NCBI GenBank assembly: GCA_965277715.1
Contig: OZ255836.1
Span: forward strand, 2,624,001-2,688,000
Source of the DNA: Gammaproteobacteria bacterium
Lineage (GTDB): Bacteria; Pseudomonadota; Gammaproteobacteria; JBCCGL01
Reading direction: 5' to 3'
DNA length: 64,000 nt
Positions 2,314 to 25,644 of the stretch are shown here, piece after piece. The position numbers and the translations under genes were made by a program. Position 1 is the stretch's first letter. Every line of letters starts with the position of its first letter. The notes beneath the pieces are model-generated. The model was not told the origin of the DNA. It was given only the letters and a program-made list of their open reading frames with translations, and searched no databases.

Positions 2314-2317
2314 GTGT
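2284..2317. repeat. 34-bp direct repeat, left boundary of ~30-kb island (5' end of DUF488 gene)
   Basis: ggtgtagagcgtgtggcgtttttctggcatgtgt matches 32481-32514 with 1 mismatch; more degenerate copy at ~3301-3332. Confidence 0.85.
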
Positions 2318-3650: not shown

Positions 3651-3679
3651 AAAAGAGGAAAAGAGGGTGTCCTTTTGGC

Positions 3680-4760
3680 TTTTGCTGGAGATTCATGCTT
3701 GATGGACACTCTTTGCTACGACCTCTGCTAGTGTAACAGGGGCGACATTTCCAATCTGTCTCATACGTTCGCTCCAAGCACCTGATATATAATAGTCATC
3801 AGGAAATGTTTGAATACGTGCAGCTTCGCGAACAGTAAAATAGCGAATTGAATCATCATTAAAGCGGATCATGTTTTCCCCTCCGGGCACACCATGATCA
3901 CCGGCTTTTAATGCTTTCGAAGGCTCATCAATAGGGCTTCCTGTATGTCCCGGATAAGATTTTGCGCCATCTTTAAATATATGATTATTAAATTCGTTTT
4001 TTCTTTTTGGGCTAGGAAGATCAGATATTGCTTCTCTTACTGTTACCCAGGGTTTTTCTTGAGGCTCAAAGAAGCCATATTTTTTTAGTAGCTGAGACGC
4101 TAATTTTTCCTTTGAAATATTCAAAGGCGGGCTATCATTCTTTGCTACTTTTAGCCGCTCCCAATAGTCTCCAGTAACCCACTGTTGCCACAACAATGCA
4201 TCCTGTGAGTGAGTTGCCTTTGGGAAACTCCATTCAATATTAAGGTTATTTCTGAAACCTACGATAAAAACTCTTTCTCTTTTTTGCGGGACACCATAGT
4301 CAGCAGCATTTAACAGTCTAAAGACGACATTGTACTTTAACCCTCTATATCTCCCACTTGTATGGATTGCCTATAGCCTTCTTAAATGTTGCTCCCATTT
4401 CTCATTGTTTTCACGAACTATATTTGGGTAGATGAGCTGAAGAATAGTATACTCAAAATACGAATTGAAATTTTTTCGTAACAGGCCTTTTACATTCTCA
4501 AAGATAAAAACATCTGGTTTTGCTTCTCGTACTGCACGAACAGCCTGTGGAAGCATGTCCCTTTCATCATTAAAGGCTCTGTGTTTACCTCCAAGTGAAA
4601 GGGTTGGCATGGTGGGCCGCCAGCAACGACTGAAATGCTGCTCTTATATTTTTTGAAAGAGAAATTTTTTACATCACTATGTTGAATATCCCATTCTTTT
4701 ATTTGGGCTTGTCCTTCATCGTGATTTTTAATAAGTGTATCTACTGCATCTTTAAAGAGT
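3680..4760 (-). pseudogene. DNA (cytosine-5)-methyltransferase, frameshifted and interrupted
   Basis: C5-MTase motifs spread over several frames: GGPPCQPF, FENVKGL, DYGVPQKRERV, RYFTVREAARIQTFPD, RQIGN; N-terminal FxGxG motif missing. Confidence 0.85.
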
Positions 4761-4879
4761 GCTGAATCGGTTTCTTTCTGAGCGCTTCTACCTTGCCTCC
4801 AACCCGGTAATACGGCTTTGCCCACATAGATCGGAATATCTTTATTGAAAATTAGTATACTAACAAAAAACAGTAAACA

Positions 4880-5293
4880 TTAATCCAGCCAGCTCTCTAA
4901 TGCCAGTTTGGGAATTCTTGCAAACTCTCGGGTATTGGCACTTACCAGCACCTGACCCAGGGATAGTGCCTGAGCACCAATCAGCAAATCATTGCTGCCT
5001 ATAGGTAAACCACGCTTTTCCAACAACACCCGCAAATCGCCATACACCATACTAGCTTCGGCAGTCAGCGGTATTATTGGTAAGCTAGTAAGAATACGTT
5101 CAATATTATTGCTTAAAGCGAGGGAATTCTTTCTTGCCGCACCATACCGTAACTCACAGGCGACTATGACACTAGTGCAACATTGTCGTTCACAGCCGCT
5201 TTCAGTAATGTAAGCAGCAACTTTACCCTGGGGGTTTTTGATTAAATCAGAAAGGATATTGGTGTCGAGTAAATACCGGTAGTCCATTGCCAT
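4880..5293 (-). CDS. vapC: VapC PIN-domain toxin
   Basis: YLLDTNILS, ELRYG, IGSNDLLIGAQA, VSANTREF motifs. Confidence 0.92.
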   Translation of the reverse strand: MAMDYRYLLDTNILSDLIKNPQGKVAAYITESGCERQCCTSVIVACELRYGAARKNSLALSNNIERILTSLPIIPLTAEASMVYGDLRVLLEKRGLPIGSNDLLIGAQALSLGQVLVSANTREFARIPKLALESWLD

Positions 5294-5304
5294 TATACAT
5301 CCAG

Positions 5305-5541
5305 TTAAAAAATATCTTCCGCTTCGACAAGTGAATCCGGTATGTCGGGAAAATTTTCACGCCATGGTTTCATATCAGCCAACACGCTGAGTAAACCCGG
5401 TTTTTCTACTGGGCAGATTATCAGTTGATCGCCTTCTTTACGAATAATAGCCTCTGTACCTTCTAGCTCAAACTCTCTGGGTATTCGTAAGGCTTGGTTA
5501 CGTCCGTTTCTAAATAAACTGACGTGTCTTTCAGTTTGCAT
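5305..5541 (-). CDS. vapB: VapB (AbrB/MazE-type) antitoxin
   Basis: LFRNGRNQALRIPREF; immediately upstream of vapC. Confidence 0.9.
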   Translation of the reverse strand: MQTERHVSLFRNGRNQALRIPREFELEGTEAIIRKEGDQLIICPVEKPGLLSVLADMKPWRENFPDIPDSLVEAEDIF

Positions 5542-5560
5542 TCGTTACCACATATTCAGT

Positions 5561-5582
5561 AAGCATATGACAAAGCATATGC
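5561..5582. promoter_or_regulatory. Probable VapBC autorepression operator
   Basis: Tandem aagcatatg repeats, each with palindromic catatg core, ~20 bp upstream of vapB. Confidence 0.45.
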
Positions 5583-5692
5583 CTGGTGTGTTTTCTTGTC
5601 AAATAGTAAAAAATAGGCTCTGAGAGACACCCGTTTTGTGGCACTCGATCATCGACACCTCGCGCTGCCAGCCATATTTTAACCAATCATTA

Positions 5693-5754
5693 TAGCTTCC
5701 CGCCCTTCCTTCACTGAATTTCAAGCGCCGTATCGTGCGGGAACGGTTAACCTT
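5693..5754 (+). repeat. Fragment of the 3' flank of a Y1 transposase element
   Basis: tagcttcccgcccttccttcactgaatttcaagcgccgtatcgtgcggg..cggtt repeats at ~18428-18490. Confidence 0.75.
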
Positions 5755-5934
5755 GAAGTAATACGTGAAGCGCTCAGAAACCAGATACGCCTATCGATAA
5801 AAGAGCAATTTGATGACCGTATCGTTTCCGGGCGTCAACAAGCGAAAACAGGGAAAGGTACAGTTGCTGACGATGCTTACTTTGATGCGGCACGTTTATA
5901 TGTCAAAGAAAAATATATAACGCCGCCCATTTAA
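5755..5934 (+). pseudogene. 5'-truncated ParD-like (RHH) antitoxin
   Basis: Manual translation EVIREALRNQIRLSIKEQFDDRIVSGRQQAKTGKG...; no start codon. Confidence 0.55.
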
Positions 5935-6067
5935 GCATGAACATTGCTGTTTATATGGTATCTGAAAGGCATCGCCAGTGGCGTTCAATCTTTGACAAGC
6001 GCCTGGATACTATTAACAGGGCTTAATTACCTATTGATATAACGTATACCGATGTTGGTATTATGTG

Positions 6068-6853
6068 TCACGTTTCATTTCTTATCCAATGTACTTCACT
6101 TCGAATTGTTCCATCAGGGAAGAGATCCAAAATTCGGAAACCCTGAATCGATCCGTCCAAACTGTGAGAAGCCCAAAAATCTTCATGGTCAACTGGCTCC
6201 CCAAATTGTGCATGTGATACATGTGCAAATGTTGATGGTGTAGTAAATTGTACATGTCCCTCAGTATTGATCTCAGATGCATTGTGCGTATGCCCAGCTA
6301 TTACTCCTTTTATATTCCTGTGGCTATTAAGTAGTGCTGTAAATTCTACTGAATTGAGAAGTTTACACCCGGAAGATGGGCATACGTTGGACGGGGTGTG
6401 ATGAAGAGCTACCAGTATTGGGTGATCCCCAAATTCTGCAATATACTTCTTTATTTCAGAGATTTCGGTTGAACTCACACATCCATGTGAATGGCTTTCA
6501 ACCTGTGAATTAACGAATAAGAATCCCCAGTTAGAAAGCTCGGTCACATTAGTAAAGAATATTTCATCGACGTTAAAACAAGCGAGCATATTCGATACAT
6601 CGTCATGGTTACCTGGCAACACATATACAGGAATTTCGAGCCTTGCCAATATACCGCGAAGTCTTTCGTATGTTGTTTTAGAGCCATCCTCCGCCAAGTC
6701 ACCAGTTGCAATTATGAGATTTGGCTGCTTGGGTAGTTGCTTGATTGCGTCGATAACGTTTTCAAGTGAAAGAGCGGTATCAACCCCGTATAACTCCGAG
6801 CCAGGTTGTGCTGTGAGATGTATATCAGTAATTTGTGCTACGCGTATTGTCAT
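6068..6853 (-). CDS. Metallophosphoesterase, CpdA/Icc-like cyclic nucleotide phosphodiesterase (cassette-like gene)
   Basis: DIH, TGDL, PGNHD, LHH, AGHTH metallophosphoesterase motifs. Confidence 0.85.
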   Translation of the reverse strand: MTIRVAQITDIHLTAQPGSELYGVDTALSLENVIDAIKQLPKQPNLIIATGDLAEDGSKTTYERLRGILARLEIPVYVLPGNHDDVSNMLACFNVDEIFFTNVTELSNWGFLFVNSQVESHSHGCVSSTEISEIKKYIAEFGDHPILVALHHTPSNVCPSSGCKLLNSVEFTALLNSHRNIKGVIAGHTHNASEINTEGHVQFTTPSTFAHVSHAQFGEPVDHEDFWASHSLDGSIQGFRILDLFPDGTIRSEVHWIRNET

Positions 6854-6885
6854 GATTTCGGATTATTGTCGTATTCTAGTGTGAC

Positions 6886-6926
6886 ACATAACAGTTAGTA
6901 TCAGGCAGATTTGCCTTGATAAGTAA
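6886..6926 (-). other. Orphan attI-like site of second integron platform, with cassette junction GTTATGT
   Basis: Minus strand ttacttatcaaggcaaatctgcctgatactaactGTTATGT matches segments of 30106-30186 and 18935-18968. Confidence 0.65.
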
Positions 6927-6960
6927 TGGTAATTCTGGGGACATAGAACTTAATTATACC

Positions 6961-7407
6961 GGTTCTTCCCCGATTATTGTGAAGCCACTGGTTCCCTATC
7001 CAGCTTTTAAACGCCAACGAAATGGATACTTTTAACCCTGAAGGGTCTAAATCAACTGACACCACTGACCAGAATGGCACTTCCTTAAGCTGTAAGTATT
7101 TGAAAGTATTGGTATTACGTGCTTGGTTCAGATAACTTGGCATATGGTTCTTGAAAGCAATATTTGTAAAACTATCCCGGTTATCATTGGCGGCAACTTT
7201 CAAAATATCATTTTTTTTCTTAGAAAGAATAAATAAACTCTTTACTATCAGTTGCTTACGCCTTAAGGAAGTGCCATTCACCACTGACCAGTCATCTGTC
7301 AGGCATAGGAGCTGGCTGTAGTGTTCTTCAAGGCTCGATAGCACCGGAGTCTCTCAATGGCAAAGGGGGATGAAATACTATAACTTCACACAAACCGGGG
7401 AAGAACC
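6961..7407 (-). mobile_element. Internally deleted ISL3 element (same IS as 26575-27892)
   Basis: Both ends retained (ggttcttccccg...cggggaagaacc); ~1.1 kb of transposase deleted. Confidence 0.9.
7072..7279. mobile_element. 208-bp MITE nested in the ISL3 remnant
   Basis: 18-bp perfect TIR gaatggcacttccttaag; 11-bp target duplication accactgacca (7061-7071, 7280-7290), present once in the intact ISL3. Confidence 0.9.
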
Positions 7408-7570: not shown

Positions 7571-9154
7571 ATGGAGTTTACGACAATTGTATTTATTGTG
7601 GTGATTGTTTTGCTGATCGCTACGATTGGCAAGATTGGTACAGATAAAGGCGTTTTAGAAAAATCTCTGGAAGCACTAAAGAAAACACTAGAAGCAGCGG
7701 AGGCTACTATTGCTAACCTGGAACCACTGAAAAAATACCAATCCATTCAAGATGCTGACCGGGAAGCACAGCGCATACTAAAAGACGCTAATGAACAGTC
7801 CAATCAGACTATTAATTCCGCGCTGGAAAAGTCAGAAAAAATTCAGACTGATGCGATAGAAATATCTGATAACCTTCGCGCTGAGAGCCGTGCCAATGCT
7901 CGCGCAACTCGCGAGAAAAATGAAGCGTTGCTCAACACAGCGCAAGAACAACACGATAAGATTATTGACACAGCTCGACAGCAAGCAATAGAAATTGCAG
8001 GTGATGCTCTCAAGGCCAAGGAAAATACCGACCTATACAGTAAGACAGCCGCAGCTATGAAAAATGCGATCAAAGGCTATGGCGATGAATATCTAATTCC
8101 CAATCACACTTTGATTGATGAGCTTGCCGAGGATTTTGGCCATAAAGAGGGTGGACAAAAACTTAAAGATGCGCGTGCCCATAGCCGTACACTGATTAAA
8201 AACGAAATGGCCGCTGAGTGTGATTACAAAGAACCAAATCGGCGGACCGATGCTATTCATTTTGTGTTAGATGCCTTTAATGGAAAGGTCGACACTGCAT
8301 TGGCAAAAGCAAAGCACGACAACTTTGGGAAATTGCAACAAGAAATAGAAGATGGCTCTAATCTGGTCAACCGTACTGGCCAAGCTTTTCGTAATGCCAG
8401 AGTAACGCCAATCTATCTTTCCGCTCGATTGGATGAGTTACGTTGGGCTGTTACAACTAACGAACTAAAACGACTCGAGCGTGAAGAGCAACGTGTTATT
8501 AGAGAGGCTATGCGTGAAGAGGAGCGTGCTCGACGTGAATATGAAAAAGCTCAAAAAGAGGCAGCTAAAGAAGAGAGCATGCTACAAAAAGCAATGGAAA
8601 CTGCTAGAAAGCAACTGGCTGGTGCTAACGAAGAGCAGCGACAGCAATATGAACAACAACTGGCTGATCTGGAACTGAAGCTACATGAAGCTGAAGAGAA
8701 GAATCAACGCGCTTTGTCTATGGCTCAGCAAACACGACAAGGGCATGTGTATGTTATTTCCAATATAGGTTCTTTCGGTGAGAATATCTTCAAGATCGGT
8801 ATGACTCGACGACTGGAACCAATGGACAGAGTAAAAGAACTAGGTGACGCCAGTGTACCTTTTGGGTTCGATGTACATGCGATGATTCATAGTGATAATG
8901 CACCACAGTTGGAAAAAGCGCTGCACGAACGATTTAATGGTGAAAGAGTTAATAGGATTAATTTGCGCAAAGAATTTTTTAACGTGAGTATTATTGATAT
9001 ACGCCATATTATTCAGTCTATGGACATAGACGTGCATTGGACAATGAGAGCTGAAGCATTGGAATACCGTGAAAGTTTAGTTGAGAAAAATAGACCTCCC
9101 AAGGTTAATTTAACCGTCCAACCAGTAGTAAACGAACAGCTTGCGACTGCGTAA
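7571..9154 (+). CDS. DUF4041 / T5orf172 (GIY-YIG-like) domain protein with N-terminal TM and coiled coil
   Basis: GHVYVISNIGSFGENIFKIGMTRRLEPMDRVKELGDASVPFGFDVHA...EFF signature. Confidence 0.88.
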   Translation: MEFTTIVFIVVIVLLIATIGKIGTDKGVLEKSLEALKKTLEAAEATIANLEPLKKYQSIQDADREAQRILKDANEQSNQTINSALEKSEKIQTDAIEISDNLRAESRANARATREKNEALLNTAQEQHDKIIDTARQQAIEIAGDALKAKENTDLYSKTAAAMKNAIKGYGDEYLIPNHTLIDELAEDFGHKEGGQKLKDARAHSRTLIKNEMAAECDYKEPNRRTDAIHFVLDAFNGKVDTALAKAKHDNFGKLQQEIEDGSNLVNRTGQAFRNARVTPIYLSARLDELRWAVTTNELKRLEREEQRVIREAMREEERARREYEKAQKEAAKEESMLQKAMETARKQLAGANEEQRQQYEQQLADLELKLHEAEEKNQRALSMAQQTRQGHVYVISNIGSFGENIFKIGMTRRLEPMDRVKELGDASVPFGFDVHAMIHSDNAPQLEKALHERFNGERVNRINLRKEFFNVSIIDIRHIIQSMDIDVHWTMRAEALEYRESLVEKNRPPKVNLTVQPVVNEQLATA

Positions 9155-13373: not shown

Positions 13374-14528
13374 CTATTTCTGCCTATAAAAAACCACCTT
13401 AAATTCCTCGCCACTTTTATCATTAAAAAACTCAGTCGCCTTATGGTGTTTTTCGATACGTTTAATGCCGCTGCCCATACCTGAATACGGCAAAAGCTTG
13501 ATCGCGTGAGACACCAATATAGGATTGCGGATAACCGAGTTGCCATAGCGAATATTTTCCACGGTGAGATGGTTAGGCAAGCTGCCGGGGCTGACCAACT
13601 CAAGCCTGTCTTGAAACAAGAGCAGGCGGATCACCGCACGCTTGCCATAGTCGCGGTGCAGCAGCGCGTTGACAATCGCCTCTTGCAACGCAGTCTCAGA
13701 GATCTCTAGCTCAGGCTGCGCATTAAAGCCGGGGGTTGATGGTTTTTGGCGCAGATGGCTTTTCAAAAATGCCATCGCACCCTGATAAACCAACAGTATA
13801 TTGCCTACCATATCGGCCCGCGACATATAGCGGTCATCGGCAATATCGTTACCGTAAAAGCTGACCGCGCGAATCAAGCAGTCCGGCGAATACGTCTGGG
13901 GTTGGCGGGCAAACAATAACAACCCGGCCAGATTAAAGTACTCACCTTTGGCCAGGTTCATATTATTCAGTAGCTGCTGCTCGCTAAGGTCTAGCTCCGC
14001 CAGGCTATCGCCAGTGGTTTGATCCAAAAATGCACTAAACATCACCTTATCCAGGCTGTCTGCAATAGCCGCCTGGCTAAGCCCCTCATCGATGTTGATA
14101 CGTGCATATTGTTGCAGCATCCGCTCCAATTCGGGCGGTGTCATCAGTTGTTTGCTGGTGGCGACCCGCAGCCAATACTTGCCGTCCCGGGTCATATGCG
14201 GTTTGTTATTGCTCGCCTGGATGCGCAGCACAATAATCGTCTTGCCTTGATAGTGAATAGCCTGGATATCCGGCTGCAAGGGCGCGATGACTTTATCGCG
14301 GGCAATACTGGCGATTCGCTGCTTGGTCTCTTCCAGCTTTTCGGGGGCAATGCCGATAACACCTTTGCCTTTATCTTCAATATCCAACAAAACCCAGCCA
14401 CCGCACGCATTGGCAAAGGCTGTCATCTCGGCGGCGAATTCCAACTCTTTTTTGGGCAGCGCTTGCTTAAATTCGTAAAACGAATCTTCCCCTGTGTGTA
14501 AAATATCGTCCAGACTGCGCTCAAGCAT
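13374..14528 (-). CDS. Schlafen/AlbA_2 domain fused to HATPase_c_4 (RecG C-terminal-like) domain
   Basis: GEDSFYEFK...AFANACGG; EAIVNALLHRDY...SPG.L...RNPIL...GSGIKRI; overlaps upstream gene by 8 nt. Confidence 0.85.
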   Translation of the reverse strand: MLERSLDDILHTGEDSFYEFKQALPKKELEFAAEMTAFANACGGWVLLDIEDKGKGVIGIAPEKLEETKQRIASIARDKVIAPLQPDIQAIHYQGKTIIVLRIQASNNKPHMTRDGKYWLRVATSKQLMTPPELERMLQQYARINIDEGLSQAAIADSLDKVMFSAFLDQTTGDSLAELDLSEQQLLNNMNLAKGEYFNLAGLLLFARQPQTYSPDCLIRAVSFYGNDIADDRYMSRADMVGNILLVYQGAMAFLKSHLRQKPSTPGFNAQPELEISETALQEAIVNALLHRDYGKRAVIRLLLFQDRLELVSPGSLPNHLTVENIRYGNSVIRNPILVSHAIKLLPYSGMGSGIKRIEKHHKATEFFNDKSGEEFKVVFYRQK

Positions 14529-17082
14529 GGTTAAAAAACCTCAATAAAGCCTCGATAGGCGGCCTTGCTTTACCGGCCAAATCAAACACCTTTTCCATCT
14601 TCGGTGCCAACGCCAGCACATCATTCAACATACCAAGGTAGCCTTTACGGGTAAATTCGGTTTTATCTTTGCACTGGCGCATCGCATCCAGCGATTCTAC
14701 TACCTCTTGTAGGGTCGCCTGCTGCTCCTGATTGGCTTTTCGCAGCGCTCGATTCAGCACACCTTCTAGCTCATCCAGCGTATTTTGGATGTTCACCTCA
14801 ACGTTGATATTCGCCTCGACCTGGGCATTGCTAGTGGTGGTATTGATATTGTGAACATGCAGGTGCATACCACCACCTGAAAGAAAATGCCCACCCTTCA
14901 TATAAACAGGCAGCGGCGGGTTTCTCCGCATGCCGATTTCCTCCGGCGTTGCGATTTTCGCCAACTCTGCGCGCACATTAAAATCCTGATTCAATTGCGG
15001 TACAAAATAATCCTGCTTGCCCGCATTATCACAAGCCAGCAATGCGTTAAAGTCCAGGCTTTGCTGGCGATCATCGCCCAGCATCAAGCGCTCGCTCCAC
15101 TCCAGCTCGGCGAAAAAGCTGTTGATATCACGAATCTCATCGCGCACGGCCAGCCAGTCTTCCTTCGGTTGTCGCGCGATCACCCAAATATCGATACAGC
15201 GTTCGCGCTTATTCGCCTGCACCATTACACGCGCACTGCTGTGCCGGTTTTTCAGGCGAATACCGGCATTCCAGAAGTCATTATCCTCGGCCTCGTACAC
15301 CTTTGAGTTCAACATACGCACAATCAGGCGGTGAATAATGCCCACTGGCAGGCTGTCTTTATAGGCCAGGTAATAATGTGCGCTGGCCTGCTCGCGGTAC
15401 TCCTTGTAGGAGGGCAGCTTGGGGTCGGCCTGCAAAGCGGCGGGAATCAAAATCGCCTTATTGTCTTGCGTATAGCACAGCTCAAACTTCTTCATCAGCG
15501 CCAGCAAATAGCGGTAGTGCTCGGCCTCGTAACGAAAATCGTCTTTGTCTACCGGGGCGAGAATCTGCGGAAAGTTATCGATGGATAGCTGCCCTTTAAG
15601 CTGAGCGGTAATATGCGAGGTAAGCAGTTTATACACCCCGTCTGTCAGCCATAGCGGGTTGAGAATTTGCAGGTGTTTTAGGTCTTTATCGTCAAAATAG
15701 CAAATCGCGCCGAGGTCGTTGAGGTATTGAATCAAGGCTTTTTGGTTCTCTGCATCGCTTTCCTCTGCCTCTTCGCAAATGAGCGTAAAGGTGCGGTAGC
15801 TAATCCAGTTTTTCCCGGCGCTGGTTTGCGCCTCCAACTGCTGCTTAACGGTAAACCAGCTATTAGGGAAAGGCCTGGAAACCAGTTCCAGGTTCTTTAT
15901 CTGTGTTTTAAGCGCAACGGTAAAGTCCTCAATACCCCCACCGCTGTGGCAGGAGAGCGCATAAAAACCACAGATCGCCGGGTAGCGATCTCGCAGTTGC
16001 TTCTCGGCCAGATCACCTCCGGGGTTTTGGTCGATTTTGTTGCGCACCACCATAATCGGTGAATCACCGCCCAGGCTGCGGATATGCTCCAGCCAGTACT
16101 CTGGCTCTTCCTCCTTGCGGCCGTCCAGCACCAGCACGTACAGGCTGCGCTCGGTCATAAAAAACTTATGCGCGGAGAGCTGAATCTCCTGGCCGCCAAA
16201 GTCCCAGATATTGGTGCGAATAGCGCCAACATACCAGGCCTGCTGGTGCACACCCAGCGTACTGGCCTGCTGTTCGCTATAGGTATTAAACACCACCCGG
16301 TTGCACAGGCTGGTTTTACCCGCGCCGCCATCACCCACCAGAATAAGCTTGGCCTCGTTTAGCGGGCGGCTGCCGGTTTGGCGGTTGGCGTGCAGCCAGG
16401 CGATGGCGGCTTTTGCGCCTTGCCGCCGGGTATCATTTGGGATTGTGGCCCTTAGCTTTAACTCTTCCAGGTTTTCCAGTTCCCCACTAAAGCGTTTTCG
16501 GCAAGGCTCCACCCAGTCGTGCAGGCCAATATCGCTAAGCGCCTTTAAGAAATTGTGGATAGCGGGCTGCCAATTTTCAGGCTCAGCGTTATGCCATAGC
16601 GTGTGTTCGTAGGCGTTATTGTTGGGGAGAAAAAGCAGCTCTTGCTCTAGCAAGGTATTTAGTGTCTGTTCACTTAGTCCAATGGAGCGAGCGGCGGTGA
16701 CGGCGGCGTAGGCGGCGTAGGCGGTGGCGGCGGCGTAGGCGGCGGCGTAGGTGGCGGCGTAGGTGGCGGTGGCGGCGTAGGCGGCGGCGTAGGCGGCGGC
16801 GTCGGCGGCAGCGTCGGCGGCGGCGTCGGCGTAGACGTCGGTGGCGGTTGTATTATTATAATCCTTCAACAAAAAATGCACACGATCCACAGCAAAAATT
16901 ACTGCAAGGGCATGGCCTGCTCGTTCCTCTTCCTCCCAAAAATCAAAATGCCCTTCCCTGCCCAACATCGGCAAGCTACGCAGCGCCATCCGCCACGCGA
17001 ACGCCACGCGCTGCTCTCTATTCAGGGTTTTTCTCAGTCGTTTTGCCAAGGCTTCTCTATCAATCACGCGTTGCCACCTCAC
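14521..17082 (-). CDS. Roc-COR (ROCO-family) GTPase without LRRs; Ala-rich repeat in N-terminal region
   Basis: G1 GDGGAGKTS, G2 STLGV, G3 WDFGGQE, G4 NKID; COR motifs YLNDLGAICYF, ILNPLWLTDGVY, LMKKFELCY. Confidence 0.9.
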   Translation of the reverse strand: MRWQRVIDREALAKRLRKTLNREQRVAFAWRMALRSLPMLGREGHFDFWEEEERAGHALAVIFAVDRVHFLLKDYNNTTATDVYADAAADAAADAAAYAAAYAATATYAATYAAAYAAATAYAAYAAVTAARSIGLSEQTLNTLLEQELLFLPNNNAYEHTLWHNAEPENWQPAIHNFLKALSDIGLHDWVEPCRKRFSGELENLEELKLRATIPNDTRRQGAKAAIAWLHANRQTGSRPLNEAKLILVGDGGAGKTSLCNRVVFNTYSEQQASTLGVHQQAWYVGAIRTNIWDFGGQEIQLSAHKFFMTERSLYVLVLDGRKEEEPEYWLEHIRSLGGDSPIMVVRNKIDQNPGGDLAEKQLRDRYPAICGFYALSCHSGGGIEDFTVALKTQIKNLELVSRPFPNSWFTVKQQLEAQTSAGKNWISYRTFTLICEEAEESDAENQKALIQYLNDLGAICYFDDKDLKHLQILNPLWLTDGVYKLLTSHITAQLKGQLSIDNFPQILAPVDKDDFRYEAEHYRYLLALMKKFELCYTQDNKAILIPAALQADPKLPSYKEYREQASAHYYLAYKDSLPVGIIHRLIVRMLNSKVYEAEDNDFWNAGIRLKNRHSSARVMVQANKRERCIDIWVIARQPKEDWLAVRDEIRDINSFFAELEWSERLMLGDDRQQSLDFNALLACDNAGKQDYFVPQLNQDFNVRAELAKIATPEEIGMRRNPPLPVYMKGGHFLSGGGMHLHVHNINTTTSNAQVEANINVEVNIQNTLDELEGVLNRALRKANQEQQATLQEVVESLDAMRQCKDKTEFTRKGYLGMLNDVLALAPKMEKVFDLAGKARPPIEALLRFFNHA
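16690..16848 (-). repeat. Degenerate (GCC)n codon repeat encoding TATDVYADAAADAAADAAAYAAAYAATATYAA...
   Basis: ~50 consecutive codons, nearly all GCC/ACC/GAC/TAC/GTC. Confidence 0.9.
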
Positions 17083-17109
17083 TAGCGGTTCACCCGCCGG
17101 GTTTTATCG

Positions 17110-17991
17110 TTATTCACTAATACCCGAAATTTCATCCATACAACTTTGCTCGATTACCGTGTGCAGCTTTTTTACACACGGCATTAACTGTAGCACTTGC
17201 TCACCGCTTATCTTATAGCTTTTATCATAGCGGGCGCCGATATAGGCGTAGTCGAGCAGCTCGAACAGTTCCTGCTGCGCATCGGTCTCGCGCGGCAGTA
17301 TATTGCTTAGCGCCGGACAATAGTCGATGGCTAAATCCCCTAGCGTATCGAGGTGGTGTTCTTGCGGGGATTCACCGGCAAATACCAATAAAACGGCTTT
17401 GTAGGCATGTTCACAGGCTTGATGAAGTTCAAATGCAGATTTTTTATAACTATCTCTGTTGAAAGCATTATCCGCATCAATAAGAAACTCCTTTGCGCTG
17501 GAAAATGTTTCGGTAAAGTCAGCTTGGGCGATGCGCTTTGACTCCGTTGGATCCAGTTCCCGCTTATCACCCAGTTCCACGTTACCACTGTTGTATAGCT
17601 GTATGCCTTGACCCAAAATTTCTGTAAAGAAATACTGCCCCTCATAAAGTTTGTAATTAACAAAATCAATATCGCGGGGAATAATGCGCAAGTAAGTGCT
17701 TAACCCCCCCTGCTCACACACTTGCTTGATATGCTGCCAAAGCCTGGTGTCCTGGGCGGTGTATTCATGCCGGGTAATGGCGAGGATGTCGTAGTCGCTT
17801 TTTTTGTGGATGGTCAGCCGACCGCGCCCTTGCTGGTGTGGGCCGTCTTTCCAGTCACCGCGCGCGTAAGAGCCAAACAGCAATACCATCTCGACGCTAT
17901 CGCATTCCTGGCAAATAGTCGCGGCGATGCGCTTTAGCTCGTTTTGTTTTTTTTCCGGTAAATGGCTAATGCTGTGATTCATGGCGGGCAA
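17110..17991 (-). CDS. Nucleotidyltransferase (MNT)-HEPN fusion protein
   Basis: LFGSYARGD...SDYDIL (Pol-beta NTase); FELHQACEHAYKA...HHL...YIGARY (HEPN). Confidence 0.9.
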   Translation of the reverse strand: MPAMNHSISHLPEKKQNELKRIAATICQECDSVEMVLLFGSYARGDWKDGPHQQGRGRLTIHKKSDYDILAITRHEYTAQDTRLWQHIKQVCEQGGLSTYLRIIPRDIDFVNYKLYEGQYFFTEILGQGIQLYNSGNVELGDKRELDPTESKRIAQADFTETFSSAKEFLIDADNAFNRDSYKKSAFELHQACEHAYKAVLLVFAGESPQEHHLDTLGDLAIDYCPALSNILPRETDAQQELFELLDYAYIGARYDKSYKISGEQVLQLMPCVKKLHTVIEQSCMDEISGISE

Positions 17992-18133
17992 TATACCGAA
18001 AGGGGGTGAAGCGCTTCAAGCGCTACTTATCGGGATCGATAAAGAATGATGACAGCAGTCGCTATCTTTAAACAAATTTTTATTCAAAAAAGAAAGAGAA
18101 TTGAGTGTACTTCATTTTATTCAAAGCAATACG

Positions 18134-18164
18134 GTAGGGCGCAATAACCAACGGGCATTGCACC
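18134..18164 (+). repeat. REP-like element
   Basis: GTAG head followed by imperfect hairpin ggcgcaat-aaccaacgggc-attgcacc. Confidence 0.6.
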
Positions 18165-18250
18165 GAACGACGTCAACAATTTTCCAATTGATAAATAGTC
18201 AGTTTTGTTAGGAAGGCAGTAAAAAGTGCCTGTCCCTTCTCTCTCCTTTC

Positions 18251-18640
18251 CTCGATTGGACAGGGCGCTCCATGCGTGACGATAAACTTGGTCATATCCA
18301 TGCTGCGCTACCGCCGATACTCAAGCGTCTGGGTATTCTTGTGGATCAATGGGTCAGCGATAGCCAACAATTTGAGGTGGTTTACCGACGGCGATTCAAT
18401 CGCGCTGTGCCAACATCGAACACCGGATAGCTTCCCGCCCCCTCCTTCACTGAATTTCAAGCGCCGTATCGTGCGGGGACGGTTGACTTTGGCCTGAATT
18501 CAACAAAATGTTGGGGTAACATCTGGTTCCATCGAACTTTTCAGTTTTTAGCTGCGTTTTCGTGTTTCCAGCGTCATGCGAGTAACCGCCATCGCTCGTC
18601 AGTTGGACATATTTTGAAAAGGGGGTGTCCTTTTAGCTTT
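18251..18640 (+). mobile_element. Remnant (C-terminus and 3' flank) of a Y1/REP-associated transposase element
   Basis: Manual translation LDWTGRSMRDDKLGHIHAALPPILKRLGILVDQW...FE; flank ends in gggtgtccttttagcttt, similar to 3665-3682 and 29737-29753. Confidence 0.65.
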
Positions 18641-18819
18641 GACGCTGTTGGATTTGATCAATCAGAAAGGCCAACATCATCAGATGCATGAGCACCGTCG
18701 CTAGGAGCCTGTCGGATTCAGGACTGCTCTACTGCGAAAAACAACGCGTGCTGAACCACGCCAAAAAATCCTTTGTGATGGGTTGGGGGTTTCAGCGAAC
18801 CCAGGGGGAACGTTACAGA

Positions 18820-18934
18820 CGATAGAGAACAATCCAATCGTAGTAAGCACGCTCAATATGAATAGAATAACGGAGGCGTCTCATGAGATCACGCACTTCT
18901 GTAGCAGTTTTTTGTCCTTTGTTGGAGTTGACAT
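18820..18934 (-). pseudogene. 5' fragment of a second integron integrase with collapsed attI (18935-18968)
   Basis: MSTPTKDKKLL-(frameshift)-EVRDLMRRLRYSIHIERAYYDWI; DNA closely similar to 30257-30355. Confidence 0.75.
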
Positions 18935-18987
18935 ACTTGCCTGATTTCCTGGATACTAATTGTTATACTCCTATTTCGGTGCGCCAC

Positions 18988-19965
18988 TTATCCCCGTTCA
19001 AGTAAACTACTGAGTGGGCTTTTAACGCCCTGAGCACCTTGTTTGAGAACATGGGTATAAATTTCAGTTGTTTTTACGTCGCTGTGGCCAAGTTGTTGTT
19101 GTACAGTACGTATGTCAGCGCCGCTTTGTAGTAAATGCGTAGCAAAAGAATGTCGTAATGTGTGTGATGAAACTGGCTTAACAATGTCGGCCTTTTTCCT
19201 TGCGCTTGCAATTACCTTATTAATGGACGACTCATCAATGTGGTGACGTCTGACGTTGTTGGAAACTGGATCAACGCTCAATTTTTGCGATGGAAAAAGA
19301 TACTGCCAACCAAGCGTTTTATTCGCCATTTTATATTTTCGACTCAAGGCATCGGGCATCCAAACACCTGCATAAACAAAATTCGTCAGATCTTCCTCTA
19401 AAAGCAACCGTACTCTTTCAATTTGCCTGGTTAACGCCGACACCAGCTCCGGGGCTAAAGTGGTAAATCTGTGTTTGCGGCCCTTGCCATTCCAGATACG
19501 AAGCTGTAACAAATCCATATCAACATCGTGTACGCGTAAACGTACAGATTCCATGCGACGTAACCCAGACCCATATAGGATACCGATTATTAGTTTGTAT
19601 TTAGGGTCAACATGTTTAAGTAGACGGCTGACTTCACTTTGTATAAGCACCACGGGTAGTTTTGCCTGGCGACTTGCACGTTTAAATTCCACCATTTCTC
19701 CCAAGGGCTGTTCGAGAAAGCGGTTGTACAAAAATGCCAGCGCATTCAGCGCTACCTGCTGCGTGCCAATAGCAACCGTGCGGTTGATGGCCAAGTGCGA
19801 CAAAAAACGGACGACATCTTGCTCCCCCATTTCCTGAGGGTGTCGGTTGTGGTGGAAACGAATATAGGAACGAATCCAGGTGATATAAGCCGAGATTGTG
19901 CGCTTACTGTAATACCGCACCAACATGAACTCGTAAATAGACTGCAAAAAGGGCGACTTGTACAC
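18988..19965 (-). CDS. intI: Integron integrase
   Basis: [41 protein letters not shown] and IntI-specific insert WQYLFPS...RRHH; divergent attC array. Confidence 0.96.
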
Positions 19966-20147
19966 GTATAAATCCTTGTAAAGCAGAGAGTGTTATATGA
20001 TAATCCAAAACCAAAGGTTTAGGGAGTCGTTCCAGCATTTTTTTGTCTGTTATTTGCGATTTTCGTAGGGTTTTGTCATATTAATCAATATTTTAGTGTG
20101 TCTTTGTGAACTCAGTCTCGCGAAATTATCGCGATTCCACATAATAT

Positions 20148-20187
20148 TGTTATCGAGGATTCGTTCCTCGATAACAGGCTGTTAGGT
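20148..20187 (+). other. attI site of the intact integron
   Basis: GTTAGGT core at 20181-20187 is complementary to ACCTAAC of first attC; preceded by inverted repeat tgttatcgagga/tcctcgataaca. Confidence 0.75.
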
Positions 20188-20271
20188 TTTCATTCGGCAC
20201 AATGGATCCCTAGTACATAAAACCAGTGCCAAATACTCCAGGAGATAGAGATACAAAGTAATTTTAACGAT

Positions 20272-21051
20272 ATGAGTTCGAACGAAGCAATAGAATTTGA
20301 CTCGAAAAACAACCCGGTATTTTCTGATATTAACGAAGCGATACGAAAGCATATAGAAAAAACATTTGACGACAAAGAGGCTATCCGGTGGATGTCTGAA
20401 TCATTTTTGAAGGAGGGGTATATTAAGGTAAGCAATATTGTGCCTGATTCAGTTAAGAAGATTTTTGATGAAGAAGTGATGGCCTTATTATCTCAACATG
20501 CCAAGCGGAGGGATATTCACATAGAGGTTACCGACAATAGCCCAAGATTCATGAGCAATGTGCGGCAACAAGATATTGCAAAATATGGACAAGTAGTTCC
20601 TGCGGTATATCACTCTCCAGCCTTGCTAGATTTTATTAGCACATTCTCCAGAGAGAATATTATCCCTAACCCTTGGGAATATGAAAAATTTATTATTAAT
20701 CGGCAAGAACGTGTTGGGGATACGCATGGATGGCATTGGGGAGACTACCCTTACAGCATGATATGGATTGTTAAAGTCCCCGATATATCATATGGAGGCT
20801 TGCTTGAATGTGTTCCTCATACATATTGGGATAAAAAAAATCCAAAGATACAGGAGCATCTATTAAGGAATAACATTACTACTAAAGCTCATATAAGTGG
20901 TGATATATATATGTTGAAATCTGATACGACTTTGCATCGGGTTACCCCATTAATAAGGGATGCCACTCGAATAATAGTAAATATGGCTTGGGAGAGAGAA
21001 ATTGACAAGGATCGTGAAGTAACTCACGAAACTTTTGCCTTTAGAGATTAA
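20272..21051 (+). CDS. BesD/HalD-family Fe(II)/2-oxoglutarate amino-acid halogenase (cassette 1, gene 1)
   Basis: T.NSPRFM, GDTHGWHWGDY (H-X-G instead of H-X-D/E), GGLLECVPHT.W.K, LHRVTPL, RIIVNM. Confidence 0.82.
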   Translation: MSSNEAIEFDSKNNPVFSDINEAIRKHIEKTFDDKEAIRWMSESFLKEGYIKVSNIVPDSVKKIFDEEVMALLSQHAKRRDIHIEVTDNSPRFMSNVRQQDIAKYGQVVPAVYHSPALLDFISTFSRENIIPNPWEYEKFIINRQERVGDTHGWHWGDYPYSMIWIVKVPDISYGGLLECVPHTYWDKKNPKIQEHLLRNNITTKAHISGDIYMLKSDTTLHRVTPLIRDATRIIVNMAWEREIDKDREVTHETFAFRD

Positions 21052-21068
21052 TTGGTTATAGGTGTAGT

Positions 21069-22031
21069 ATGGATAAGTTACGCCCCCCCGATCTTTTTGA
21101 CTATGCGCTTTTGATTCTTCTTGGAGCTATGTTTGGAAGTAGTTTTTTACTAATGAAGGTTGCCGTTAGTACAGTCCCAACATTTCATGTGGTCTTCTTT
21201 AGACTACTGTTCGCATTTTTTGTGTTGTATGTTTTTGTGAGAATCAAAAAGCACAAATTCCCTTCAATACAGAATCGAGAGTTTTGGAAGGTATGTGTCG
21301 TTTTAGGCTTTACCGCTAATATTATTCCTTTTTCTTTAATTACTTGGGCAGAAAAAGAAATTGATAGTGGTTTGGCATCGATATATATGGCAACAATACC
21401 GGTTTTTTCTTTGCTACTGGCTCATACATTGACTAGTGATGAAAAATTAACCATACAGAAAGTGGTAGGGGTGTGCGTGGCTTTTGCTGGAGTAGTAATT
21501 CTTTTATGGGGAGAAGCAAGGGAGATTTCACAAAATCTTCTTGCACAAATGGCGTGTCTGTTGTCAGCGATATTTTATGCATATTCAAGAATTCTGGCTA
21601 AGACTATAGGAAATGAAAATCCAATAATTATTAGTTCAGGGGTTCTTTTATGCGCCATTATTTTTATGGTGCCTCTGATATTTTTGTCGGGAAATCCCAC
21701 TACTATAAATCCATCTAGTGAATCTATTTTTGCAATAATATTGCTCGGCATATTCCCAACTGCATTAGCGTTCGTAATTTTGTACAGATTAATACATGAT
21801 GTTGGGGCTGTGTTTATGACAAGCGTTAATTACTTGGTGCCAGTTTTCGCCATCATTTGGGGGTATTTCATACTGTCAGAAAGTATAAATGAAAGGGCTA
21901 TTCTAGCGCTTGTCTTTATTTTTTCGGGAGTATTGTTCATGTCCAAAACCATTTTTACTATTGGAAAGTTTTCACAATGGAACCTAACAAGGCGCTCAAC
22001 AGGGACGCGCAAAAAGCCGCGCGCCCGTTAG
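21069..22031 (+). CDS. DMT/EamA family transporter (cassette 1, gene 2)
   Basis: ~10 TM segments in two EamA repeats; GSSF, PFSLITWAE, VNYLVPVFAIIWG; ORF ends inside attC. Confidence 0.9.
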   Translation: MDKLRPPDLFDYALLILLGAMFGSSFLLMKVAVSTVPTFHVVFFRLLFAFFVLYVFVRIKKHKFPSIQNREFWKVCVVLGFTANIIPFSLITWAEKEIDSGLASIYMATIPVFSLLLAHTLTSDEKLTIQKVVGVCVAFAGVVILLWGEAREISQNLLAQMACLLSAIFYAYSRILAKTIGNENPIIISSGVLLCAIIFMVPLIFLSGNPTTINPSSESIFAIILLGIFPTALAFVILYRLIHDVGAVFMTSVNYLVPVFAIIWGYFILSESINERAILALVFIFSGVLFMSKTIFTIGKFSQWNLTRRSTGTRKKPRAR

Positions 22032-22044
22032 CTTTGCGTTATGT
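21982..22044 (+). repeat. attC site 1
   Basis: ACCTAAC...imperfect palindrome...GTTATGT, 63 bp. Confidence 0.9.
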
Positions 22045-22070
22045 GAATCCGTAAAACTAAGGAATATAAA

Positions 22071-22505
22071 ATGTCATACATTCAAGACTCTCTATCAAAA
22101 GGCGAAGAAATCTATCAGGTATTTGAACATCATTGGATTGTGAAGTTCTTTCTCCTTATTCATATTGCCATGTGTCTAACTATCATATGGATACCAGTTG
22201 CTCTTTTTTACTGGTTAGGCTGGAAATTCACAGAGCAAGGTGTAACGAATAAAAGGATAATCTATAAACACGGTATTATTTCGAGAAAAACTGATGAGAT
22301 GCGCCTCGCGGCCATTGAGTCAGTAATGATCAAGCAGGGTATTATTGGCCGCATTCTCGGCTTTGGTAAAGTCGTCATCACTGGTCGTGGTGCTGGAGAC
22401 GTGGTTATAAAATGGATGGCTGATCCAATGAGAGTAAAGCGTGAAATTGAAAGTGCAGAACATGAAACTCCTGCTCATGTATCTCAACAAGCCGAGCTGG
22501 CATAA
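22071..22505 (+). CDS. Bacterial PH domain (bPH_2) membrane protein (cassette 2)
   Basis: VTNKRIIYKHGIISR...IESV...QGIIGRILGFGKVVI.G.G. Confidence 0.85.
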   Translation: MSYIQDSLSKGEEIYQVFEHHWIVKFFLLIHIAMCLTIIWIPVALFYWLGWKFTEQGVTNKRIIYKHGIISRKTDEMRLAAIESVMIKQGIIGRILGFGKVVITGRGAGDVVIKWMADPMRVKREIESAEHETPAHVSQQAELA

Positions 22506-22508
22506 ATC

Positions 22509-22584
22509 ACATAACAAATTTAGGCAATCGGACAAATTACTGCGCCTTCGGCTCCGTAATTTTCCGTTGCTAAAGGCGTTATGT
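22509..22584 (+). repeat. attC site 2
   Basis: ACATAAC...GTTATGT with internal hairpin. Confidence 0.9.
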
Positions 22585-22622
22585 GCTTTCAGGGCACCCG
22601 AACTATCAATGGAATACATAGA

Positions 22623-23789
22623 ATGCCAATATTTACCGGACTAAATTTGAAACCGCAACTTATTGCTATTTTACTTTGGTCTATATCTTTGCAAGTTCTG
22701 GCGTCTGAAAAAACGATTACCTGTAATGATGCTATAAATAGCGCAGCAGAACTAAACGCCTATGATTTGTGGAGTGGTGCTGGCGACTGTTCTAAGTCAA
22801 ACTTAAAACGTGAAACAAATTTTCTTTTAATTGCTGGTCAAATTCGCGCAATGTCTGATATGAGTGTGTTAGAGCCAGCTTCAGATGAAGAGGGTGTGAA
22901 GGTCGGTGATTTGTATGGGGTCCTTTACTACAAATCTGGGGGTTCAGGTTTCGATGAAATTTATAGAGATGCTATCGAATTTGGTCAACTTTTTCGGGAT
23001 CTAGAAAGCTGGACCGCAAAACTTCACAAAAAATACAATCCTGGATGGGAATATAAGGCCAATATTGACCCCACCTATTATGACCAAATGACTATATGTC
23101 AAAAAAAGCTTCGTATTTCTAAATTAAAGTGGTATTCGAACCTAGTCCGAAACGACAAGTATTATGAACTGAGTACACAGCTTTCTAAGTTACAGGCAGA
23201 TAATTCAGGAGCGTTTCAGGTTGGGACTGAAACATACAAGCAGTATCAGAGCATAAGCTCCAAAATAAATTCTGTTAGTTCAAAAATATCAAAACCGAAA
23301 GTTAACCCTAAAGAGTGCGACTTCATTCAACCGTTCAGACCAGATCCAAATGCTAGCTTTAAGCAAATATACAAGGGTTATAATGGCCCCGATAATAGTA
23401 GAGCTAGTGTATTCAAATCGGACGCGGAAATTAGAGGTTCTTGGCTTGGTAGAGCGATTAAAAAATCGAATTTGGATAATTTGTTGGCTAAAATAGATTT
23501 CGATAAGAAAATTGTCGTTTCTCTAAGTTTTGGAAATCGAAAAACAGCAACAGGAACTATCCATATATCGGATGTAAAATTCAATACTGTATACAAAAGC
23601 CTCTCCGTTGCTGGTCTTGTCGGAGTTGTTGGACAATCCTGCACCAAGAGCCAACTAGATTCTTATCCTTTTGCATTGGCAATCGCTGATATACCTCCTG
23701 TCGAAATCTATTATCCGAGTATCTCTATACAAAATTTCGCGGACGGATGCAAAGAAGTGGTTTCGAGTAAGGGGGTCTTAGATGATTAG
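22623..23789 (+). CDS. Hypothetical exported protein (cassette 3)
   Basis: 389-codon ORF with signal-peptide-like N-terminus between attC2 and attC3. Confidence 0.8.
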   Translation: MPIFTGLNLKPQLIAILLWSISLQVLASEKTITCNDAINSAAELNAYDLWSGAGDCSKSNLKRETNFLLIAGQIRAMSDMSVLEPASDEEGVKVGDLYGVLYYKSGGSGFDEIYRDAIEFGQLFRDLESWTAKLHKKYNPGWEYKANIDPTYYDQMTICQKKLRISKLKWYSNLVRNDKYYELSTQLSKLQADNSGAFQVGTETYKQYQSISSKINSVSSKISKPKVNPKECDFIQPFRPDPNASFKQIYKGYNGPDNSRASVFKSDAEIRGSWLGRAIKKSNLDNLLAKIDFDKKIVVSLSFGNRKTATGTIHISDVKFNTVYKSLSVAGLVGVVGQSCTKSQLDSYPFALAIADIPPVEIYYPSISIQNFADGCKEVVSSKGVLDD

Positions 23790-23816
23790 CTTAAAGGTTG
23801 TGTCTGGAAGTCTGGC

Positions 23817-23876
23817 ACATAACAAAAACAGTCAAGGCGACGCCAAAAAGCGGCGCGCTTGCTGTAAGCGTTAGCA
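23817..23876 (+). repeat. attC site 3
   Basis: ACATAAC...GTTAGCA, 60 bp. Confidence 0.88.
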
Positions 23877-24103
23877 CGATGAAAGAAATGAAGAAAATTC
23901 TCACCTTAGTATTAATGCTTGTTCCTCTTGTTTTATCTGCCGCTGAGTATCCGTCACTACTCAAAGTTCCGGTAGGCGAAAGATTTTCCCACCCTCAAGG
24001 GATGCAAAACAAAGATAAAGGTGGGCCTACAACTCAATTCCGAGTGCCAAATCATGGTAACATTTCATCTATTTTTCCTGAGTATTCAATTGCCTATTTA
24101 AAT

Positions 24104-25644
24104 CATGGGTGTACCACTAGAATCCTACCAGGAAGCTAATAACGCAATGAATAACACCTGAAAAGAGCCGCCATAAGCTACAAATAGTATTTTTTATAAT
24201 ATTTGTACTGTTTTTTTATAAACCGATAACACGCTTTATAATTCATAAAATAAATAAAATTATCCAAAAAAACACTTGCATTCACCAGCAGAATTTTTTT
24301 TTAAAATACCCATTTAATATCTGATTAAATGGGCAAATTGAATATGAACGAAATGATGACCGTTGAAGAATATATCACCGAACACTGTAAAATAAGTATG
24401 GAAAAAGCAATTGCTGCTGAACGCTTCCCTTTATGGAAAAGATCATGCGATGCCATTGATGACGTAGCTTTTTCTCGCCATGGGTTACTTCGCTGTATAA
24501 GTCTTGTACATAGTGGTCGTCACTATCTACAGGTTACGGATGAAATATACGACGAGACAATTTGTCATTCAAGCTATTTTAACGCATTAAAGTCGACAAG
24601 ACGGATGAAGATGATGGAAGCCATGGAAAAGCAAAGCTATCAACTGCAAAGTGAGAAATTATCTTCTTTGGACATTGATTATTTAAAACAATTTCCTGAA
24701 CTTGAAGAATATCGAGTAGAAGCAGCTGATGGTCATTTTATACAGCATGCTTGTCACACAGAGAAAAATCGTCAGGGCAACGTCTTCGCAGCAGGCTTTA
24801 TTCATGCCTTGAACCTCAGAAATGGACTTCTAAGACCACTTTGTGTCGTGACTAACGGTACTGAACGACACCAGGAAATACCCGCGTTACGTTCTTATAT
24901 TGAACAACGTTGTGGCGAAAAAGAGACTTGGCAAAAGCACCTCTATATATACGATAAGGCGGTGACTGATTATGCATGGTGGGAAAAGCAAAAACAGCAT
25001 CAGAATTTTATGATTTCAGTACTCAAAGAAAATGCGGTTGCAACTTTTGTCAACTCTATACCCTATGACCAGGGTAGTGAAATTAATACAGGGGTTGAAG
25101 GCTATAGTGTATATAAAAATAAAAAGGTCCAATTTCATATTGTTAAATACCGCGACCCAGAAACAGGTCAATTACATCAATTTATTTCAACGCTACCAGA
25201 GTCAATTAACCCAGGCACTATTGCTATGCTCTATTACAAGCGTTGGACGATAGAAAAATCATTCAACAATAGTAAAAGTGATTTCACCGAAAGAAAAGCC
25301 TGGTCTTCAAACCTGAATGCGCTGAACAGTCAAATGCGTTTTACTGCCATGGCCTATAATATCATGCGTATTTTTGAAGAAACATCAAAAACAAAGAACC
25401 TGGAATGTATTCATCCATCTGATAAAAAATACACTAAAATGCTTGATAAGAGACAACAAATTGCCCAGAAAAAAGGCGGCTTTGTTAATCCATTGTTTTT
25501 TTACGCTAGAATTACCCGTATATGCTCATTCACCATCCGCTCTCTGCAAAATGCAATAATGACAAGAAAGTCCCTTAGAACTATTATGCATAGCTTAGTG
25601 AGGCATTTAAAACCTCGACAGCCAGGAATTTTGAAACACTGATG
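24104..25644 (+). mobile_element. IS4-family insertion sequence
   Basis: CAT...ATG ends with imperfect IRs; 8-bp target duplication atttaaat (24096-24103, 25645-25652). Confidence 0.88.
24329..25642 (+). CDS. IS4-family DDE transposase
   Basis: AADGH, YDKA, YYKRWTIEKSFNNSK (YREK motif). Confidence 0.9.
   Translation: MGKLNMNEMMTVEEYITEHCKISMEKAIAAERFPLWKRSCDAIDDVAFSRHGLLRCISLVHSGRHYLQVTDEIYDETICHSSYFNALKSTRRMKMMEAMEKQSYQLQSEKLSSLDIDYLKQFPELEEYRVEAADGHFIQHACHTEKNRQGNVFAAGFIHALNLRNGLLRPLCVVTNGTERHQEIPALRSYIEQRCGEKETWQKHLYIYDKAVTDYAWWEKQKQHQNFMISVLKENAVATFVNSIPYDQGSEINTGVEGYSVYKNKKVQFHIVKYRDPETGQLHQFISTLPESINPGTIAMLYYKRWTIEKSFNNSKSDFTERKAWSSNLNALNSQMRFTAMAYNIMRIFEETSKTKNLECIHPSDKKYTKMLDKRQQIAQKKGGFVNPLFFYARITRICSFTIRSLQNAIMTRKSLRTIMHSLVRHLKPRQPGILKH

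Follow-up and report, generated by a model that had tools for sequence, protein, structure and literature searches.

A Roc-COR GTPase gene linked to the gene of a putative Schlafen-type effector

Bacterial Roco proteins serve as structural stand-ins for LRRK2, and in the literature that we searched their cellular role is only predicted, with no test found. In the window, a stretch of 64,000 nucleotides of gammaproteobacterial DNA, a Roc-COR gene lies between a fused MNT-HEPN gene and a gene for an AlbA_2 plus GHKL ATPase protein, here called Schlatpase (Table 1). Do these genes form one system, and what would such a GTPase control? The first-pass annotation had described three co-oriented open reading frames, with 27 bp between the first two and an overlap of 8 bp between the last two. 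These coordinates were reproduced, all three genes being on the minus strand and the 8 bp being shared by the Schlatpase start and the Roc stop. The Roc-COR gene probably begins at the GTG at 17067, five codons past the listed start, because a Shine-Dalgarno-like GAGG lies upstream and the 95%-identical relative P0001 begins there. This start gives a protein of about 848 aa (853 aa from 17082) and therefore a HEPN-Roc gap of 42 bp, not 27 bp; the HEPN gene itself probably starts at the ATG at 17982. Runs X4 and X6, which belong to two other studies, yielded contigs that bridge both gene junctions, so the three-gene arrangement is not an assembly artefact. Run X5 covered the integrase region but not these genes; as none of its contigs joins across, it was not counted as absence. 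Four of the eight listed runs holding window sequence are labelled sponge metagenome, and no RNA dataset was among the listed holders.

Table 1 Features of the locus and related loci (positions in the window unless a locus is named)
Feature	Position	Strand	Basis or remark
Fused MNT-HEPN gene	ORF 17110-17991, part as 17110..17982	minus	Pfam Polbeta and HEPN; neighbour
Roc-COR (AP-GTPase/Roco) gene	ORF 14521-17082, part as 14521..17067	minus	Pfam, PDB and fold search; predicted sensor and switch
Unnamed all-helical N-terminal domain replacing LRRs (likely)	16375..17067	minus	Ala/Tyr repeat at DNA ~16669-16860
Roc GTPase domain, aa 245-351	16030..16350	minus	Pfam; G1-G4 motifs
COR-A (aa 406-549) and COR-B (aa 570-697)	14992..15867	minus	Pfam
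C-terminal helical domain, aa 765-853	14524..14790	minus	Most Schlatpase-linked Rocs have an alignable C-terminus
Schlatpase gene (AlbA_2 and GHKL ATPase, 384 aa, TrlG-like, no HTH)	13374..14528	minus	Predicted effector
Integron integrase (context)	18988..19965	minus	TIGR02249, 432.7 bits; cassettes on the other side, from 20272
TrlF-linked HTH-less Schlatpases	L016-L018, L024-L026, L032, L054, L063, L073, L139, L144, L145, L147, L152

Linkage of the genes in related loci

The three-gene operon of the first-pass annotation was not borne out, and its alternative, that the HEPN gene is an independent neighbour, held: a HEPN homologue was missing from all 13 linked loci that reach 1.4 kb or more upstream of Roc, and the conserved system comprises two genes. 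A three-gene system, with MNT-HEPN as a second effector or regulator, would fit the common orientation, the gap of 27-42 bp, the same gene order in close relatives and the lack of a convincing promoter or terminator in the intergenic stretch (the promoter scan was at chance level, with 6 found and 6.6 expected). It was largely refuted by the neighbourhood survey, and further points against it are the commonness of the MNT-HEPN family, a stand-alone family present in 374 plasmid records, and the lower GC3 of the HEPN gene (0.53, compared with 0.61-0.64 for the Roc/Schlatpase pair and 0.60-0.66 for ftsY, ftsE and rpoH). HEPN/MNT toxin-antitoxin pairs carry an Rx4-6H motif in HEPN. Here, the residues after the HEPN Arg, YDKSYK, include no His, and MNT and HEPN are fused in one gene rather than encoded separately as in such pairs; the MntA model reached 23 bits against a cut-off of 60, and PADLOC matches to MNT were weak. 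We regard a three-gene system as highly improbable, and the MNT-HEPN gene is likely a neighbour and not part of the pair.

Neighbourhood conservation of Roc-COR with AlbA_2-HATPase homologues, the test that the first-pass annotation had itself proposed, revealed linkage in both directions that was specific to one clade. Scanning genome contigs with Roc alone yielded 15 loci, all Bacteroidota by title, 14 of which have a C-terminal helical domain alignable with that of the window. Schlatpase was next downstream in nine of the 14 same-clade Roc loci (41-44% identity), while the five same-clade Rocs without it have no copy elsewhere in their genomes either. L013, which shares the N-terminal domain of the window and belongs to a different Roc lineage, also lacks Schlatpase. 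The gap was at most 37 bp in 12 of 15 linked loci; Schlatpase is split in L006, and in L012 it is intact and the adjoining Roc is split. In the reverse direction, metagenomes scanned with a Schlatpase alignment gave at least 590 matching stretches, at least 576 of them confirmed, and the best 80 were kept. Among these 80, Roc-COR lay upstream in all six near-full-length relatives with at least 41% identity and at least 700 bp of upstream sequence, and in none of 44 more distant Schlatpases, 30 being too short to score. Equal-sized contigs (49380 and 58673) indirectly indicate two further pairs of Roc and Schlatpase matches; for the closest Schlatpase, P0036 (58%), no equal-sized contig was among the 120 Roc matches listed.

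As a control, COR-A was found in 23 of 401 Bacteroidota-group genomes (30 loci from 32 places). Within the 1.5-kb flank, the seed alone carries a Schlatpase, against none of the 29 other loci; a flank of this length may overlook genes that follow a long C-terminus. COR-A and Schlatpase occur together in five other genomes, on different contigs. Across three genome samples (401, 391 and 391 genomes), members of the Schlatpase clade were confined to the seeds and to L135, an identical copy of L002. The pair is thus rare, with one match beyond the seed genomes, which limits its ecological weight. More distant Schlatpase matches in these samples lay behind TrlF or among restriction-modification genes. 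Dependence is one-sided, in that the linked Schlatpase clade was not seen without Roc and five Rocs lack Schlatpase. The Bacteroidota pairs lie mostly amid housekeeping-type genes, with no obvious defence islands. Judged by gene neighbourhoods in sequence data, Roc-COR and Schlatpase are a conserved two-gene pair.

Phylogenetic analyses were in line with this grouping. In a careful tree of 49 rows, from which distant and fragmentary rows and the duplicate L135 were left out, one branch separated the 15 Roc-linked from 20 non-Roc Schlatpases (support 99/98). The Roc-linked proteins also formed one set in a quick tree of 92 rows (97). For 12 pairs, Roc and Schlatpase distances correlated through the deep splits (0.75, p 0.0006), and the nine core pairs showed no correlation (Spearman 0.12, p 0.27). 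The two trees of the 12 pairs had five of nine splits in common and one well-supported conflict. The deep agreement and shallow disagreement thus mark the pair as old and stable but not strictly co-evolving. A single loss of Schlatpase (86) was not upheld with more rows, which pointed to one or two losses.

The Roc-COR protein and its N-terminal domain

The window protein shows the sequence features of Roco membership, a Roc domain with G1-G5 motifs followed directly by COR-A and COR-B. The intact G motifs reported at first pass were confirmed (G1 at 250-257, G2 Thr275, G3 at 294-298, G4 at 348-351), and a G5-like SC is also present. A PDB search matched Roc-COR to MbRoco2 (4wnr, E 1e-87) and CtRoco, and the fold search agreed. 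These bacterial proteins, used as structural models for LRRK2 (PDB 6hlu, 3dpu, 8r4b, 4wnr), are homologous to the window protein in Roc-COR; CtRoco differs in bearing LRRs, and for neither CtRoco nor MbRoco2 was a linked effector gene found in the searches made. No close relative of the window Roc or Schlatpase was found in viral contigs and no Roc match in the phage collection, and the viral fold library returned only Ras-like GTPases for Roc. The C-terminal helical domain looks non-enzymatic. It has no Pfam match, and a DUF4404-like identity is a lead only (0.91, from a cluster of which 21% carry DUF4404).

Pfam assigned no LRR family to the Roc protein and its N-terminus was predicted to be all-helical with an Ala/Tyr repeat at aa 77-119, of low confidence, which agrees with the earlier description of an LRR-less protein with a helical Ala-repeat region. 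Among 50%-identity representatives this domain has 278 relatives (E up to 0.001). The best 150 comprised 63 proteins with Roc, 27 long non-Roc proteins and 60 short or fragmentary ones. In the 27, Pfam identified TIR-type domains in nine and no family in ten, the other fusions being to KAP, NACHT, metallophosphoesterase, EAD11/TRADD-N, FRG and ATPase-methyltransferase. The Atlas offered no named family (best 0.83). By its sequence relatives, the domain appears to be an unnamed module of conflict-type proteins, and it merits a family model of its own. Individual examples are P0163, P0180, P0203, P0231, P0249 and P0253, in which it occurs with EAD11/TRADD-N, NACHT, TIR/SEFIR, KAP NTPase and Pycsar-type TIR.

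The Roc-COR core of the window nests among the LRR-bearing linked Rocs, apart from other Rocs that share its N-terminal domain (support 98, and 99 after a third of the nearest other Rocs was added; both quick trees), so the helical Ala-repeat domain likely replaced the LRRs. From its position, a sensor role of this domain can be proposed. Loss of LRRs as the defining feature of the system was rejected, as LRR-type repeats are present in every other linked Roc whose N-terminus could be read; elsewhere, Rocs that carry this helical domain and no LRRs are common.

The predicted effector and known relatives

In the Schlatpase, Pfam placed SLFN_AlbA_2 at residues 14-129 and HATPase_c_4 at 300-366, with no C-terminal HTH, and the structural model (pLDDT 92) matched DIP2311 and mammalian Schlafens. 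Proteins with both domains are very abundant (60,692). The window protein carries Ex4ExK (E14-x4-E19-x-K21) and thus the Ex4(D/E)xK pattern, which is missing from 97 of 102 aligned rows, the second acid being replaced by Gln in 96 and by His in one; the four Glu forms belong to one subclade, which includes P0036, P0106 and P0134 (98/94). Ex4ExK was required in tested Schlafens, and of seven tested only the DUF262 and Ig-like fusions protected, not the HisKinase type, according to the available part of that report (PMC13056530). Since Gln replaces the second acid so widely, the linked effectors may for the most part be weak nucleases or non-nucleases. The GHKL E-x3-N motif is conserved (E283 in 102/102 and N287 in 101/102 aligned rows), and E283/N287 were matched to RzAgo E314/N318 by motif spacing. 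In the proposed PADLOC check (PADLOC-DB 2.0.0), the pAgo model matched part of Schlatpase (aa 35-338), matches to MNT were weak, and no model matched the window Roc.

The TRL locus of Photorhabdus laumondii (trlR-trlF-trlG), named for its temperature-restricted phenotype, encodes in TrlG a protein like the window Schlatpase, with AlbA_2 at 14-128, HATPase_c_4 at 298-365 and no HTH, behind a large NTPase gene (Hapeshi et al., PMC7554251; 10.1101/2020.06.02.129163). In the available text of that study, TrlG is needed for heat-induced growth arrest, which loss of trlG relieves, and 19 of 29 sequenced suppressors had a point change in trlG and none in trlF, an absence that fits a restraining partner. 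Six suppressor sites, S16, A193, P318, S331, N335 and G354, have the same residue in the window protein, compared by number only. In addition, HTH-less Schlatpases with a conserved E-x4-Q-x-K, hence also Gln at the second acid, lie directly behind the PHP-ABC ATPase TrlF in 15 rows on several tree branches (Table 1); these are sister groups of the Roc-linked proteins, at about 37% identity. The window differs from TRL in its upstream partner, a Ras-like Roc-COR GTPase instead of TrlF, and in that no trlR was seen. HTH-less lineages thus join different NTPase partners, TrlF or Roc-COR, and the pair suggests how stand-alone Schlatpases may be controlled.

The Schlatpase of SLFN-pAgo likewise combines AlbA_2 with PF13749, Ex4(D/E)xK and the GHKL E-x3-N, and ATP-driven tetramer formation and tRNA cleavage are described, for RzAgo only, in the available part of the preprint (10.64898/2026.05.29.728809). 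In contrast to SLFN-pAgo, the window has no Argonaute, its sensor would be a separate GTPase, and among the Roc-linked relatives Gln mostly takes the place of the second acid. In PARIS, the AriA ATPase restrains the tRNase AriB. This serves as a works-like analogy, of an NTPase sensor that frees a tRNA-cutting effector; the proteins are unrelated and no homology is claimed. A ParA preprint, as far as its available part goes, couples ParA to a HisKinase-Schlafen gene (10.64898/2026.10.19.760177), and NTPase-plus-Schlatpase pairs therefore have precedent.

Roc-COR conflict proteins were predicted by Kaur 2021 (PMC8195603) with effectors fused at the C-terminus behind LRRs. Like the window Roc, the AP-GTPases in the available part of that study combine a Roc-COR core with a variable N-terminal module, and its table lists a member of the present clade (LRR-Roc-COR of Hymenobacter BT190, 914 aa, as L007) as well as an LRR-less AP-GTPase+COR+DUF4404 entry. 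The window differs in that its candidate effector is a separate overlapping gene, and in that its Roc has no N-terminal leucine-rich repeats, whereas repeats of LRR type occur in the linked relatives with a readable N-terminus. The Figure 6 source data of Kaur 2021 hold no Schlafen, SLFN, HATPase, GHKL or RecG label, although unlabelled neighbours could hide one. No paper on Roc-COR with a Schlafen partner was found in a search that covered subscription papers thinly and whose supplements may hold one. Both parts of the pair were thus already known, and the pairing was not found in the literature searched.

Models for the pair and its genomic surroundings

The pair is likely an anti-phage or growth-arrest module. 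Tentatively, and at rather less than an even chance, we favour a guard model, in which the GTPase restrains Schlatpase and a cue-released effector cuts tRNA and arrests growth. The Roc-COR GTPase would hold Schlatpase inactive until a cue from phage or stress reaches the swappable sensor at its N-terminus; this cue would alter the GTPase state, and the freed Schlatpase would oligomerise on ATP and cut tRNA, leading to growth arrest. The ATP-driven tetramers and tRNA cleavage are borrowed by analogy from the SLFN-pAgo Schlatpase and the growth arrest from TrlG; we infer restraint rather than activation, the Roc-Schlatpase contact and the phage trigger. An abortive-infection role against phage, as the first-pass annotation had suggested, may follow. 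Possible, and more doubtful, is the narrower claim that a Roco GTPase with an exchangeable sensor directly controls a separate Schlafen tRNase during phage infection, joining an LRRK2-type switch to an SLFN11-type effector. If the module is real, bacterial Roco proteins would gain a measurable and likely toxic output, and thereby a genetic readout in which plate assays could address the trigger, the sensing and the role of the GTP cycle.

The one-sided dependence fits restraint and activation alike. In the same module the GTPase could be a positive activator, whose GTP cycle would be driven by sensing and whose active form would nucleate the Schlatpase tetramer, a trans version of fused Roc-COR effectors; this we consider somewhat unlikely. 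It accounts for the linkage, is in keeping with the prediction of AP-GTPases as switches for C-terminal effectors (Kaur 2021, PMC8195603, in its available part) and agrees with L012, whose intact Schlatpase beside a split Roc is awkward for restraint unless the split is a sequencing error. A required activator would, however, be expected to yield suppressors in the larger trlF of the sister TrlF-TrlG pair, and because there were none restraint is favoured, by analogy only. Two defence or stress genes acting independently, co-transcribed on one mobile cassette without functional coupling, are unlikely: the missing partner of five of 14 same-clade Rocs, the shallow disagreement of the trees and the abundance of Schlatpases in mobile DNA, often stand-alone or associated with restriction-modification genes, would suit this reading, but order and short gap persist over about 60% sequence divergence between Bacteroidota and the window genome and through changes of both Roc end domains, and the reverse search separated six of six from none of 44 among the best 80 metagenome loci. 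Quite unlikely, to our judgement, is a non-phage stress or dormancy switch like Photorhabdus TRL, or a nucleic-acid-binding regulator in the Gln form, possibly tied to sponge-host conditions. The heat-induced arrest of TrlG type (PMC7554251; 10.1101/2020.06.02.129163, available parts), the Gln conserved across the Schlatpase clade, the sponge metagenomes among the holders and the host-like GC3 of the pair, which suggests long residence, point that way; against it stand the patchy, rare distribution, LRR-type relatives in non-sponge lineages, the swapped sensor domains and the joining of the N-terminal domain with TIR, KAP and NACHT. Such fusions to conflict domains also speak for the guard model.

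Rocs also occur elsewhere in mobile elements, which lends indirect support to a defence role. LRR-Roc-COR genes of about 1100 aa lie directly after the repressor of prophage-like contigs (L120:4651-8010, L121:4627-7947, L122:4726-8028), with an integrase beyond the gene in L120 and L122, and are candidate single-gene prophage defence cargo. A Photobacterium plasmid carries a type I-F CRISPR-associated transposon in which Roc-COR and a small HTH gene lie between TniB-family and TniQ genes (L019:4278-7016).

The three genes were first described as lying in an island rich in TA, methylase and nuclease genes. Defence-type genes do lie 4-12 kb away, but the block is flanked directly by a zinc-uptake ABC operon on its downstream side and, upstream, by IS fragments and the integron integrase. 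An integron gene cassette was rejected as an explanation, since the pair and HEPN lie 3' of intI and not on the attI side. A first attC scan gave no match; a relaxed, noisy scan found an attC-like hairpin at 22509-22584, and this crude scan, which missed another likely site, had no intergenic match beside the three genes. The integron (18988-24139) holds low-GC cassette-like genes beyond the integrase (HalD-like, EamA, a bacterial PH domain, unknowns). Between intI and the HEPN gene, 18100-18960 is debris with a short integrase N-terminal fragment, transposase fragments, a REP-like hairpin and, near 18701-18741, a multicopy IS-end-like stretch with many loose contig ends; part of this debris repeats near 5677-5752. 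The wider region holds a PD-Lambda-1 homologue (7571-9154; PADLOC 387 bits; DUF4041 and T5orf172), and 1717-7344 carries DUF488 (PDC-M45B model), NYN (HEC-09 model), a C5 methylase broken in pieces, a PIN toxin and a metallophosphoesterase. At 28237-31725, a PemK toxin comes after two paralogous transposases of Y1 (RAYT-like) type that carry a DnaA_C-like HTH, and a HipA gene lies at 58550.
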